A stretch of 63,733 nt of DNA, filler included, from Sphingomonadaceae bacterium (GTDB taxonomy: Bacteria > Chloroflexota > UBA6077), in the NCBI GenBank assembly GCA_050261575.1. It is 8 parts of 8 records of this genome, joined end to end, with 100 filler letters (N's around TTAATTAATTAA, not from the genome) between each part and the next. Parts side by side here need not be neighbours in the genome. Positions count along the whole stretch, not along the records: positions 51,178 to 56,673 come from JBLNDL010000068.1; 7 more parts are not named here. One strand, 5' to 3'. Made by a program: the position numbers and the translations under genes. This document shows, in pieces, positions 16,836 to 55,620 of this stretch. The notes beneath the pieces are model-generated. The model saw only the letters and a program-made list of their open reading frames with translations. It had not been told where the DNA came from and searched no databases. Positions within the stretch are counted from its first letter, which is position 1. Every line of letters starts with the position of its first letter.

Positions 16836-16910
16836 TGGTGGACCTGGGCGGATTCGAACCGCCGACCTTCCGGATGCGAACCGGACGCTCTCCCACTGAG
16901 CCACAGGCCC
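16836..16910 (-). tRNA. tRNA-Ala (anticodon CGC)
   Basis: 75-nt cloverleaf GGGCCTG...CAGGTCCACCA with G3:U70 Ala identity pair, anticodon arm TCCGG-TTCGCAT-CCGGA, GGTTCGAAT T-loop and encoded CCA. Confidence 0.97.
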
Positions 16911-51755: not shown

Positions 51756-52298
51756 CTAGGCCCAGCCGAACCTCTCCAAAGCCGGCCGCGCACGCTCCTC
51801 CGCCCCCATCAACCGAAGCCGGTGGAGCAGGTACTCCCTATCGATGTGCGTCCCGGCCGCCAGAGCCGCGATATCCTCCAGGTCGTGCTTCCCTTGCTCC
51901 GGCCCCCGCTGCAGCACTGCCTTCAGGGCTATCACGTCCTCGGGGGCAAGCACCGGCACTTCCACCCCCTCGAAAGGGGTGAAGCGAAGGCGGTCTATCA
52001 TCTCGCCGTCCAGCTCGTAGCGGTAGCTCCGCCCGTCCATCCTGACGATCAGGCTCCCGACGACCTCCACCGGGTCCACCTCGACCTTGGACACCTCGCC
52101 CCAGTGCGACTGCCCCCTCTTTGGCGCCGCCCCGAGAAGCCGGCCAACGTCGGGCAGATCCTTGGGCATCACGAGCAAATCCAGGTCGGTGGGCGGGCGG
52201 TTGCCGACGTAGAGGTAGACGGCCGCGCCGGCCGCCACCGCCCACTGTATGCCCGCCCCGTCCAGCAACTCCTTGATCCGTGCCACTCCGAAAGTCAA
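51756..52298 (-). CDS. Pol-beta-superfamily nucleotidyltransferase-like protein
   Basis: WAVAAGAAV..R.PTDLDLLV, VPVLAPEDVIALK..R..KHDLEDI; GGAGGA RBS before TTG 52298. Confidence 0.72.
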   Translation of the reverse strand: MTFGVARIKELLDGAGIQWAVAAGAAVYLYVGNRPPTDLDLLVMPKDLPDVGRLLGAAPKRGQSHWGEVSKVEVDPVEVVGSLIVRMDGRSYRYELDGEMIDRLRFTPFEGVEVPVLAPEDVIALKAVLQRGPEQGKHDLEDIAALAAGTHIDREYLLHRLRLMGAEERARPALERFGWA

Positions 52299-52746
52299 CG
52301 CTCTCTGTCCTCCACCGATTTGGCGCACCCAACGCGACCTGCGCGTCCGCCCCTACCAGTATTGTCAGGGTCTTCAAGTGCGTCGATTCGAAAGTGCGAC
52401 GCTGCGGGACGGTCGTGGCCGGGAGGCTGTGCTCGCTCGCCTCGCGGGCACGACCGCGCCATGGCTGCGCCCCACCGCCCTATCCGTCGGGCGCGCCTGG
52501 CGGGGGATATCCCCTGCGCCATCGAATCGCGCGGTGTTCCGCCCCTGGCGCTTCGAAACTGTACAGCATCCGGGGCGTTTTCGGAATGGCACGGCGGCGG
52601 CCAGGACACCCTCGAATGTTGACACGCCCAGAACGCGCCCCTATCATCGGTTCCGGCCGGGAGGAGCGCTATCGCCGCACCTTCCGCCTCCTTCGAGCCC
52701 CGTCGGGGCCCTTCCGCTGAGTGCCGCTGCATGGAGGTATCGGGCA

Positions 52747-54390
52747 ATGAGCGCATCCTGGGTCTTGGGCACTGGTAGGCACACGGGTCGCCCAATGGTG
52801 ATGGGCACCAGAGGGATGGTATCCTCGGGACATCCCCTCGCGTCGCAGGTCGCGCTTCGGGTGCTGATGGAGGGCGGCAACGTGGTGGACGCTGCCGTGG
52901 CCGCCTCGGCCACCCTGGCCGTGGTTCGACCTCACATGACCGGCATCGGCGGGGACCTCTTCTGCCTGATCTACCTTGCCCGAGAGGGCCGTGTGGTGGC
53001 TATCAACTCCAGCGGCCCCGCGCCCGCGGCCGCCACCCTCGACTTCTTCCGAAGTCGAAGGCTGCAGCAGATCCCTATGCAGGGTCCCCTGGCGGTGGAG
53101 ACCCCCGGGTGCGTCGCCGGCTGGGATCTGGCGCTGAGGGAGTTCGGCACCATGCCGCTCGACCGCCTCCTGCAACCGGCGGTCGACTACGCCGAGGGCG
53201 GCTTCCCGGTCTCGCCCAACCTGGCCCAGGCCATCGTCGAAGGCGCCCAGCAGTTCACCTCTCTCCCCCACTGGATGGATACCTTCCTGCCCCGAGGGCG
53301 GCCTCCCCGCACGGGAGAGATACTGAAGCTGCCCAAGCTCGCCCGCACCCTCAGAATCCTCCAGGAGGGAGGTGCGGATGCCTTCTACCGCGGGGAGATC
53401 GCCGAAGCCCTTGCCGCCTTCGTGCAGCAGGCTGGTGGCCTCCTTTCCAGGGACGATCTGGCCGGGTGCAAGGCCGAGCTGCTGGAGCCGATCCATACCG
53501 ACTACCGAGGATACACCGTCTACGAGCAGCCCCCCGTGTCCCAGGGCCACCTGCTGCTGCAGGAGCTGAACATCGCCGAGGGCTTCGACCTGGCAACCCT
53601 GGGGCCGGAGTCTGCCGAAGCGGTCCACCTGATGGTGGAGGCCAAGAAGCTGGCCTTCGCGGACAGGCTGCGCTACCTTGGCGACCCCTCCTTCCTGAGG
53701 ATGCCCATGGACCAGCTACTCTCGAAGGAGTACGCCTCCCGCCGACGGAAGAAGGTGGACCCGAACCACGCCATCGTAGCGGCCGCGCCGGGCGCCCTGG
53801 CCGCCGCCGGCACCGACACCACCTACCACTGCGTCATCGACGCCGAGGGCAACGCCGTCTCCATGATCCAGAGCCTGTTCAGGAGCTTCGGCTCCGGCGT
53901 CGTGGCTGGCGACACCGGCATCACCTTGAACAACCGGCTGGCGGCCTTCTTCCTTGATCCAACCCACCCCAACGCCCTCGCCCCCGGCAAGCGAACCGCC
54001 CACACCCTCAACACCTATATGGTGTTCCGGGAAGGCCGGCCATTCCTGGTGGGAGGCACCCCCGGTGCCGACGACCAGGTGCAGGTGAACTTCCAGGTGA
54101 TCTGCAACCTGATCGACCACGGCATGAGCCTCCAAGAGGCCATCGAGGCCCCCAGGTGGTCCAGCACCCCCGGCACCATGCCCGACGAGAGGACGGCACC
54201 GTACGAGTTGCGGGTGGAGAGCCGGTTCCCCGCCCATGTCATCGAGGGGCTGAGACAGAGAGGTCACAACGTGATACCGGCTCCCCCCTGGAGCTTCGGC
54301 AGCGTGAAGGCAGCCCTGCTGGACCCGGAGAGCGGGGTGCTGTACGGAGGCTCCGATCCGCGGCGCGACGGCTACGCCGTCGGCTGGTAG
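52747..54390 (+). CDS. ggt: Gamma-glutamyltransferase
   Basis: GGNVVDAAVA, GIGGD, KKLAFADR..GDP, autocleavage site DT|TY, PGKRTAHTL, GTPG, DPRRDG. Confidence 0.93.
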   Translation: MSASWVLGTGRHTGRPMVMGTRGMVSSGHPLASQVALRVLMEGGNVVDAAVAASATLAVVRPHMTGIGGDLFCLIYLAREGRVVAINSSGPAPAAATLDFFRSRRLQQIPMQGPLAVETPGCVAGWDLALREFGTMPLDRLLQPAVDYAEGGFPVSPNLAQAIVEGAQQFTSLPHWMDTFLPRGRPPRTGEILKLPKLARTLRILQEGGADAFYRGEIAEALAAFVQQAGGLLSRDDLAGCKAELLEPIHTDYRGYTVYEQPPVSQGHLLLQELNIAEGFDLATLGPESAEAVHLMVEAKKLAFADRLRYLGDPSFLRMPMDQLLSKEYASRRRKKVDPNHAIVAAAPGALAAAGTDTTYHCVIDAEGNAVSMIQSLFRSFGSGVVAGDTGITLNNRLAAFFLDPTHPNALAPGKRTAHTLNTYMVFREGRPFLVGGTPGADDQVQVNFQVICNLIDHGMSLQEAIEAPRWSSTPGTMPDERTAPYELRVESRFPAHVIEGLRQRGHNVIPAPPWSFGSVKAALLDPESGVLYGGSDPRRDGYAVGW

Positions 54391-54405
54391 GTCGGCGAAG
54401 AAGGC

Positions 54406-54438
54406 AAAGAAAAGGGCCCCGACGATCGTCGGGGCCCT
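54406..54438 (-). terminator. Intrinsic terminator oriented for a minus-strand transcript
   Basis: AGGGCCCCGACG-AT-CGTCGGGGCCCT followed by TTTCTTT on the minus strand; no U-tract on the plus strand. Confidence 0.8.
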
Positions 54439-54697
54439 CGTCATTCCATCGAGACTCAGTCCGCACCCGTAACGGTCTCACACGACCTGTCCTAGCCAGC
54501 CCTTCGGCGCCATGCGCCGTCTGTGGCCCGGTCTCAAGAAGTCGGGATGCGGCCGAGCTCCAACTTGCCCTGCGCACCCTGCCTGCGCAGGGCGTCACCT
54601 GTCAATCTGCCAGACTCCGAAGCGGATTCTCGCGCACACCGTTCGATACCTCCTGTTCGGTGGTCTCCGGTGTTTGCCAATCCCTAGCGCTAGGACA
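54406..54697 (-). ncRNA. Putative ~290-nt structured RNA, family unassigned (6S/Ms1-like possible)
   Basis: Bounded by a consensus promoter and a terminator; no long ORF begins inside it; 5' TGTCCTAGC is complementary to GCTAGGACA ~200 nt downstream; several internal hairpins. Confidence 0.6.
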
Positions 54698-54702
54698 CCG
54701 CC

Positions 54703-54732
54703 AGTATACGCACGCCTTACGCGATTTGTCAA
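54703..54732 (-). promoter_or_regulatory. Strong sigma-70-type promoter
   Basis: TTGACA-N18-TATACT. Confidence 0.75.
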
Positions 54733-54827
54733 TACCTAGACCGGGTTTTATCTGCGCTCTCATTCCATCTGCGCGCGGCTCGTTCTCCACGGCCGCGACA
54801 CGATCCATCGGCCCCGCCCACATCCCC

Positions 54828-54842
54828 TGGCATGCAAACTGC
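54828..54842 (+). promoter_or_regulatory. Putative sigma-54 promoter
   Basis: TGGCATGCAAACTGC, ~80 nt upstream of 54923. Confidence 0.5.
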
Positions 54843-54922
54843 ATTATGTCACCTCGCGAGCCGGCAGGTGTTCGCTGCCCCCTCGGGCTACCGGCTTTGG
54901 TACTGGCAAAGGACGGCAAGAA

Positions 54923-55141
54923 TTGGCTCAAGATAGCTCTGCACTGTCCACCCTGAGGCGGAAACGCCGAAAGCACCCGAGCCTCCTCCGCACCCCGTCG
55001 GGGGTCGAGGAGATCGTCCCGGGCCTGAGCAGTTGGACCGCCGAAGACCTGCTGGAAGCTGGCGCCTGGGACGAGGAGCTGGCACAGCTCACCGACCAGA
55101 CGGGCGACGAGGAGTACCTGGAGCCTGATCCCGACGAGTAG
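54923..55141 (+). CDS. Small protein with a basic N-terminus and acidic C-terminus
   Basis: AAGGA RBS, TTG start, GC3-biased codons; RRKRRKH patch and DEEYLEPDPDE tail. Confidence 0.55.
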   Translation: MAQDSSALSTLRRKRRKHPSLLRTPSGVEEIVPGLSSWTAEDLLEAGAWDEELAQLTDQTGDEEYLEPDPDE

Positions 55142-55191
55142 GAGAAGGCAGGTCCTTCCGACCTCGCCTCCGGCCATGCTAAAATGGCCGC

Positions 55192-55620
55192 GTGATAACC
55201 TACTCTCGGCAACAAATGGAGAAGAGCCTCATCGCCGACCAGGCGCTCTGGCGTCGAGTCCCGGCGTCCGCCGCCGCCGTCCTGTGGCCCCTGGAAGTCC
55301 TCCTCCTCGGTTGGTCCACCGGCTGGTGGGTGGGATTGTTGACAGTGGCCCTGCTCGGCTCCGCCTCCGCGGTCGTGCCGCCCCGCCTCAAGATCGGCAT
55401 CTACTGGATCGACCTGCTGGAGATGGTGGTGCGGCTGCCGCTGGACTTGCTCTGGTTGCTGCTCGTGGGCCACCTGTGGCTGCGAGAGCCCCTCTTCCCC
55501 CTCCTCGGACAGCCCTTGGCAGGGGCCATCGCCATCACACTCCTGCTGTGGCTGCTCACGAGGCTGGTGGCCGTGGGAATCCGCTTGGCCTGCAGCCGGC
55601 TGACGAGGGGCAACCGATGA
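55192..55620 (+). CDS. Membrane protein of unknown function
   Basis: Hydrophobic 142 aa; extended -10 TGCTAAAAT 6 nt before the GTG; ATGA overlap with the HAD gene. Confidence 0.65.
   Translation: MITYSRQQMEKSLIADQALWRRVPASAAAVLWPLEVLLLGWSTGWWVGLLTVALLGSASAVVPPRLKIGIYWIDLLEMVVRLPLDLLWLLLVGHLWLREPLFPLLGQPLAGAIAITLLLWLLTRLVAVGIRLACSRLTRGNR

Follow-up and report, generated by a model that had tools for sequence, protein, structure and literature searches.

In arrest peptides such as TnaC, ErmBL and SecM, a short frame has an N-terminal part that varies and a conserved C-terminal block containing Trp and Asp, and an RNA hairpin directly follows the site at which the ribosome stalls or stops. Known examples sit upstream of the gene they control. 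6S RNA folds into a rod with a large central bubble and paired 5′ and 3′ ends, and tmRNA carries a tRNA-like domain and a tag frame that has neither a Shine–Dalgarno site nor a start codon. To our knowledge, almost nothing is known of RNA regulators in the Chloroflexota, a phylum abundant in soils, sediments and sludge. A further group, the dual-function sRNAs, includes RNAs with very short ORFs, exemplified by Spot 42 with its 15-residue SpfP and rnTrpL with its 14-residue peTrpL (PMC12612679).

The locus described here lies on the minus strand of a window of 63,733 nucleotides from a Chloroflexota genome, the window being the whole stretch of DNA that was analysed. It is very likely a new structured RNA that bears a small open reading frame and is not 6S-like. 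Its parts are the following, in order of transcription and with positions counted along the window.

54727..54732, minus strand: −35 hexamer TTGACA; GGTATTGACA is invariant across the four closest homologues
54703..54708, minus strand: −10 hexamer TATACT, separated from the −35 hexamer by an 18-nt spacer
54408..54696, minus strand: predicted whole transcript, about 290 nt, both ends placed from the promoter and terminator
54683..54694, minus strand: 5′-terminal hairpin CCTAGC/GCTAGG of the consensus fold, alignment columns 18-22 with 27-31, in which an A-U pair becomes G-U in relatives
54636..54673, minus strand: 5′-UTR helix ACACCG/CGGTGT, in the consensus fold of the window's clade, where alignment columns 41-45 with 74-78 and 51-56 with 62-67 are paired
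54595..54639, minus strand: mini-ORF with GTG start, 14 codons and TGA stop; predicted peptide (M)CARIRFGVWQIDR
54567..54593, minus strand: hairpin H1, GCCCTGCGCA / TGCGCAGGGC, its stem invariant in the window's clade
54451..54560, minus strand: 3′ multi-helix domain of the consensus fold, 110-130 nt across the family
54406..54439, minus strand: intrinsic terminator with a 12-bp stem (9 GC pairs) and a T-run

Transcription unit, expression and neighbourhood

The unit opens with the promoter TTGACA-18-TATACT (54732..54703, minus strand), which agrees at 11 of 12 positions and is the sole promoter-like site within 53800-55400 (shuffle mean 0.1). Judged from its position, transcription would start near 54696. 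At the opposite end, the GC stem and T-run at 54439..54412 of the minus strand form the terminator, and the stem covaries among homologues. Both elements had been proposed in a sequence-only reading of the locus, and both hold. The 295-nt interval between promoter and terminator has a predicted fold of −139.7 kcal/mol (z = −4.12), a value equalled by none of 200 shuffles. Across the family, a strict scan placed a terminator in 50 of 92 units, with its end 160-232 nt past the first base of the peptide motif described below (median 190). Units of the large clade, such as L164:233-542 (minus strand), are AT-richer, with a purine-rich terminator 5′ arm, GGAGGG, and a 3′ arm CCCUCC; the 3′ end of the RNA therefore resembles an anti-Shine–Dalgarno sequence. 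This feature is absent from the window's clade, and for that reason a pairing of CCCUCC with the Shine–Dalgarno site was dropped as a candidate.

Expression of the unit can be traced in soil. Between 12% and 19% of the sampled words of window positions 54000-55100 are present in eight soil metatranscriptome runs from two studies. Contigs were aligned to the window for four of the eight runs (two studies), and every one of the four yielded one contig, lying entirely inside the predicted unit with 0-1 mismatches. These assembled contigs, which are strandless and approximate at their ends, span 54461-54688, 54437-54680, 54435-54687 and 54431-54687 (lengths 228, 244, 254 and 257 nt), and depths over the RNA unit are 11, 19, 117 and 235. 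In the four runs, no bin over the gamma-glutamyltranspeptidase (GGT) gene or on the upstream side has any depth, which in contig data is a weak hint only. Three further contigs of 184-250 nt, with depths of 92, 180 and 3, match only 54585-54620, that is, the end of the frame and H1, with 3 mismatches, and we take them for homologues contributed by other organisms of these samples. Together, these data support a discrete, abundant, stand-alone transcript. The abundance and independence that had been predicted for this RNA are thereby borne out by RNA contigs of 228-257 nt, confined to 54431-54688 and reaching 235×.

The GGT gene runs on the plus strand and ends at 54390, below the terminator, and is thus convergent with the RNA unit. 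Seven of the 19 genome units, the window's among them, have a convergent gene downstream: GGT in the window and in two related genomes (G061 and G239), and an integrase, LytR, a LiaF-like protein and an ADP-ribosylglycohydrolase in the other four. A same-strand, Pfam-supported gene follows in six of the 19, namely Pyr_redox_2 in three related genomes, and FAD_binding_2, CdAMP_rec and a nucleotidyltransferase in one each. Pfam searches of the flanking ORFs revealed no neighbour common to the genome units. Since the neighbours differ and seven of the 19 are convergent, the unit stands alone. A search with the GGT protein for syntenic relatives returned identities of at most 48% and no close relatives.

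Several observations on the surroundings may be recorded alongside. The window as a whole has 65.5% G+C and 616 N (masked bases), contains many long, spurious, overlapping ORFs as a high-GC sequence, and holds a tRNA at 16839-16910 on the minus strand. The open frame of GGT extends about 180 codons upstream (52249-52794, plus strand) of its likely start, MVMGTRG at 52795. A 72-codon ORF at 54923-55141 (plus strand), divergent from the RNA promoter, would encode a protein whose N-terminal stretch is basic and whose C-terminal half is very acidic. Beside one metagenome RNA unit, on the opposite strand, lies a Moco/tungsten riboswitch (RF01055, 78.5 bits, L139:631-749, plus strand), probably an unrelated neighbour.

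These neighbourhoods bear directly on whether the unit could regulate a gene past its terminator, either as a leader-peptide attenuator or as a leader that senses an antibiotic or metabolite. Promoter, mini-ORF and terminator do follow one another as in classical leaders of this kind, and the six units followed by a same-strand gene, among them the three with Pyr_redox_2, would suit this role. A regulated same-strand gene is nonetheless not a consistent feature, as the next gene is convergent in seven units and the downstream families otherwise differ. Moreover, no residue is repeated in the peptide and hence no regulatory codon, about 150 nt of folded RNA separate the frame from the terminator, no antiterminator pairing that competes with the terminator was found in the consensus folds of either clade, and the RNA contigs end inside the unit. 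We regard control of a downstream gene as improbable.

The 14-codon frame and its distribution

Homologues were collected from relatives by two routes. BLAST of the unit against 400 Chloroflexota genomes gave matches in nine genomes. Full-length matches fall within one order (38 genomes), at 77% identity in G419, 72% in G239 and 70% in G061; other genomes of this order have short matches to query positions 111-161, centred on the frame. In the four-way alignment, the −35 region, the −10 hexamer, the body, the frame, H1 and the covarying terminator all align. Later searches employed a degenerate pattern for G-V-W-Q-V/I-D-x, which matched 20 of the 400 sampled Chloroflexota genomes (reversed-pattern control, 0). 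Inspection left true units in 16 of the 400, five of the 21 matches lying in long ORFs. A slightly looser pattern matched 15 genomes of the closest order, with true units in 14 of 38, a count that includes the unpublished genome G416, on which no conclusion rests; one of the 16 matches was false and lay inside a long ORF. In metagenome contigs, the pattern plus a stop matched at least 120 stretches, and of 80 loci fetched, 73 were true units and seven were false matches within long ORFs. The pattern had no match in 251 genomes of Actinomycetota, chosen as the phylum to which an Acidimicrobiales MAG belongs, or in five single genomes from other phyla, and BLAST of the unit against five MAGs of named phyla gave chance matches only (E 0.03 or worse). 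Each unit-bearing genome has one true copy. The RNA family is spread through several lineages of the Chloroflexota.

The sequence-only reading had described the interval as free of any protein gene, which proved wrong. A Shine–Dalgarno sequence GGAGG at 54653-54649 lies 9 nt upstream of a 14-codon frame that begins with GTG at 54639 and ends with TGA at 54597-54595, and this mini-ORF is the best-conserved part of the RNA unit. The window's peptide terminates in FGVWQIDR, and those of relatives include MVCARILFGVWQIDR and MRYRVLLGVWQVDR. The consensus consists of a basic, variable N-terminus followed by [L/I/V]-[F/L/Y/W]-G-V-W-Q-[V/I]-D-[R/S/G], such that conservation at the peptide level spans 8-9 of 14 residues, and the last codon is constrained only to RGN.

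Since the search pattern itself prescribed positions 1 and 2 in the codons of the motif, codon invariance is partly circular; the BLAST-found set, the start-codon frame test and the variation at free third positions are free of this bias. All nine homologues first found by BLAST have a start codon and a Shine–Dalgarno site, and this set displays synonymous third-position changes and uses TGA, TAA and TAG as stops. In the 83 distinct units with a Shine–Dalgarno site, the first start codon 3-11 nt past that site is in frame with the motif in 77, missing in six and out of frame in none. Changes in length upstream therefore keep the frame, and indels elsewhere in the unit, as seen in the four-way alignment, are not multiples of three. 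The 77 in-frame starts comprise 62 ATG and 15 GTG/TTG, and the resulting peptides are 10-20 residues long, 63 of them exactly 14. At the third position of the first Val codon, C, A, G and T occur 22, 24, 15 and 23 times among 84 distinct units. Comparative evidence is strong that the frame is translated and under peptide-level selection. Thus, of the "abundant ncRNA" originally proposed, the abundance stands (contigs to 235×) and the non-coding character does not.

Of the 84 distinct units, 72 have a stop as the codon after the motif; TGG takes its place in 11 and GAA in one, and in these 12 putative, unconserved tails would extend the peptide. The metagenome copies L130, L155, L160, L174, L176 and L191 have TGG in place of the stop and 16-19 further unconserved codons, and the putative tails of TGG copies run through the hairpin into the 3′ domain. 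At the other end of the frame, the first codons of the large clade, AUG AGG CUU CA, are fixed at wobble positions too, and RNAalifold pairs them with the Shine–Dalgarno site, which suggests a constraint at the RNA level on these codons.

A short, conserved peptide in which Trp and Asp are invariant might alternatively be a RiPP-like precursor of a modified peptide or cofactor, with its maturase encoded elsewhere. Usual RiPP precursors are, however, longer than fourteen residues. No modifying enzyme is linked to the unit in the neighbourhoods inspected, and no split into leader and core is recognisable in the peptide, so that such an origin seems quite unlikely.

RNA structure and known RNA classes

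Consensus folds were compared between the window's clade (four sequences) and a large clade (42 sequences, alignment A2). In the former, the ACACCG/CGGTGT helix encloses a hairpin of the form CCACC-loop-GGAGG, in which the Shine–Dalgarno site (54649-54653) is paired, and the GTG start codon sits within the 3′ arm of the helix. H1 begins 1 nt past the stop codon in the window and 1-2 nt past it across the family; in the large clade, three of its seven pairs change on both sides while 99.7% of cells remain paired. Beyond H1, the 3′ domain is framed by a long closing helix (54544-54560 with 54451-54468) that contains compensatory pairs and surrounds two hairpins, a long one at 54490-54541 and a short one at 54474-54487. 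The resulting three-way-junction layout is common to the window's clade (n = 4) and the large clade (n = 42).

For the large clade, RNAalifold predicts 45 pairs, 28 of which show compensatory change. Twenty-seven pairs were scored in this clade, comprising H1, a 12-pair long-range helix and the two enclosed hairpins. In the 42 sequences, 95.5% of cells at these pairs are paired, as against at most 49.9% for slid structures. Sixteen of the 27 pairs are changed on both sides, as compared to a shuffle mean of 9.0; none of 500 shuffles reaches 16, and slid structures reach at most 12. The conserved, covarying RNA that had been anticipated is thus found, with compensatory pairs in both clades. In a third clade (MTR...GVWQVD), no clear 3′-domain fold emerged, two of the eight rows diverging after 100 nt, and the shared topology is established for two clades, the window's and the large one.

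Individual stems put forward from the window alone fared unevenly. ACACCG/CGGTGT, GCCCTGCGCA/TGCGCAGGGC and GGCGC/GCGCC all recur in the consensus fold of the four homologues. AAGTTGG/CCGACTT and GAGAC/GTCTC are both missing from it; GAGTCTC pairs instead with GGAGCTC inside the long closing helix. The window does contain the long-range pair TGTCCTAGC/GCTAGGACA, which would join the 5′ and 3′ ends, but the consensus fold lacks it and G061 offers no complement; as a conserved element it was rejected. Inspection also ruled against an attenuator-like 1:2/2:3 switch in which the W-Q-V codons (GGCAGG) would pair with the 5′ arm of H1: where the H1 arm varies, the frame does not follow. No alternative pairing that a stalled ribosome could switch was found.

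None of the RNA classes compared accounts for this structure. Across the whole window, Rfam 15 gave no 6S match and no family at gathering score in the RNA unit. Relaxing the threshold to E up to 10 on 54300-54900 again gave no 6S; the matches obtained there, including ctRNA_p42d and BjrC68, cover only the terminator hairpin and are noise. Twenty homologous loci had no Rfam family or 6S match in the RNA unit, and a permissive Rfam scan of five homologous loci returned nothing inside it. The lack of tmRNA and other hallmarks noted in the sequence-only reading is upheld: ARAGORN detected no tmRNA on 54200-54900 and Rfam had no tmRNA match either, and the unit's frame has a Shine–Dalgarno site and a start codon, contrary to a tmRNA tag frame.

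The original assignment was to a non-coding, RNA-polymerase-binding RNA of the 6S/Ms1 kind, in which the frame would be incidental. Such an RNA would be expected to look like this unit: abundant, about 290 nt long, and bounded by a strong promoter and a terminator of its own. The 6S slot is, in addition, not visibly filled elsewhere, the 6S model finding nothing in five related genomes (0/5); this silence is uninformative because the same search found 6S in only 5 of 14 control genomes, missing nine. Nor can a 6S gene elsewhere be cited against the assignment, none having been found in the five relatives. Against the assignment, neither 6S nor any other Rfam family matches even at E up to 10. 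The consensus fold, a hairpin plus a three-way junction, is branched and not a rod with a central bubble, and the closing pair on which a 6S-like rod was to be built is unconserved. Finally, the 5′ third of the RNA is a reading frame that appears to be under peptide-level selection, and a frame whose start codon is in phase in 77 of 83 units and out of phase in none cannot be incidental. The 6S/Ms1-like assignment is therefore not supported, and we give it very little credence.

Proposed mode of action and comparison with known systems

The locus is best explained as an RNA gene of about 290 nt that stands alone, is present once per genome and is highly expressed. A Shine–Dalgarno site and start codon would open in it a frame of usually 14 codons, followed by H1, the junction domain and the terminator. 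The nascent peptide may act in cis on its own ribosome, which would arrest or be slow to release at the frame's end and so be held on H1. There it would unwind H1 on its 5′ side and protect the RNA's 5′ portion, and its occupancy could stabilise the RNA, gate the folding of the 3′ domain, or both. The 3′ domain might then bind an RNA or a protein in trans. This last role is conjecture on our part. The explanation as a whole, a small-ORF-bearing RNA with a cis-acting peptide and a trans-acting 3′ domain, has in our estimate a probability of about 0.5.

The step that invokes a cis-acting peptide is tentative when taken by itself. It is suggested by the placement of the conserved block at the C-terminal end, behind an N-terminal part of variable length, and by the tolerance of stop-codon loss in 12 of 84 distinct units. 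It is suggested further by the freedom of the last residue, whose codon is held only to RGN, and by the strong hairpin that abuts the stop, in the path of a terminating ribosome. The unit shares with TnaC, ErmBL and SecM the C-terminal Trp/Asp block, the variable N-terminus and the abutting hairpin. Its W-x-x-D may resemble the W-x-x-x-D of TnaC, and its V-D plus a basic residue the V-D-K stall site of ErmBL.

The main rival is an ordinary micro-protein gene, from which a 14-residue peptide is released to act on a target in trans, as SpfP binds CRP, while the 3′ domain merely stabilises the message. Conservation of 8-9 of 14 residues at the peptide level and the high abundance of the RNA are both in keeping with such a gene, and trans-acting peptides of 14-15 residues are known in SpfP and peTrpL (PMC12612679). 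A terminator hairpin would, however, suffice for stability, yet a covarying junction of 110-130 nt is maintained, as is a sequence-conserved hairpin at the stop. The unconserved tails predicted for 12 of 84 distinct units do not sit easily with a released peptide, and the paired Shine–Dalgarno site of the window's clade would be odd if peptide output were the sole job. A released micro-peptide is a real contender, though we would bet against it.

If instead the cis-acting peptide of the preferred explanation is real, the GVWQVD nascent chain would hold a ribosome on the hairpin, and an arrest peptide would control the RNA itself and not a downstream gene, which would be a new kind of regulator. 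The RNA could then read the translation state, or a small molecule in the exit tunnel, and relay it via the 3′ junction domain. A class of riboregulators so defined, that is, very abundant stand-alone RNAs in which a ribosome arrested on the RNA's own 14-codon frame determines activity or stability, is an idea we advance with considerable reserve. Independently of this, a micro-peptide set against a conserved hairpin offers a clean, testable system for coupling between peptide, ribosome and RNA. The unit is apparently highly expressed in soil yet invisible to gene callers, at 14 codons, and to Rfam; its annotation would clear a recurrent "unknown abundant transcript" from environmental data.

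The family appears undescribed: nothing in Rfam 15 matches the unit, and a search of the main texts of the literature found no description of this RNA. We place it among the small-ORF-bearing (dual-function) RNAs, as a new family with a new architecture. Like 6S RNA (RF00013) and Ms1, it is an abundant small RNA of 200-300 nt that runs from promoter to terminator; unlike them, it has a branched fold and a predicted translated frame, and the 6S covariance model does not match it. Like the trpL, hisL and pheL attenuators, it presents promoter, mini-ORF, hairpins and terminator in that order; unlike them, it has no repeated regulatory codons, conserves a whole peptide motif, yielded no antiterminator, and is often followed by a convergent gene. 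From TnaC, ErmBL and SecM it differs in lacking a consistent downstream gene, and stalling here is putative. Its nearest counterparts are Spot 42/SpfP and rnTrpL/peTrpL, with which it shares a small transcript of 100-300 nt, stand-alone or released, made of a 14- to 15-codon frame and structured RNA (PMC12612679), as well as, in keeping with dual-function sRNAs, a stand-alone unit with its own promoter and terminator. It bears no sequence or structural similarity to either. rnTrpL arises from an operon leader (same source), whereas the window's unit has no operon. Unlike Spot 42 and rnTrpL, the unit has in its peptide its best-conserved part and in its RNA portion a large junction domain, and its frame ends directly at a conserved hairpin.
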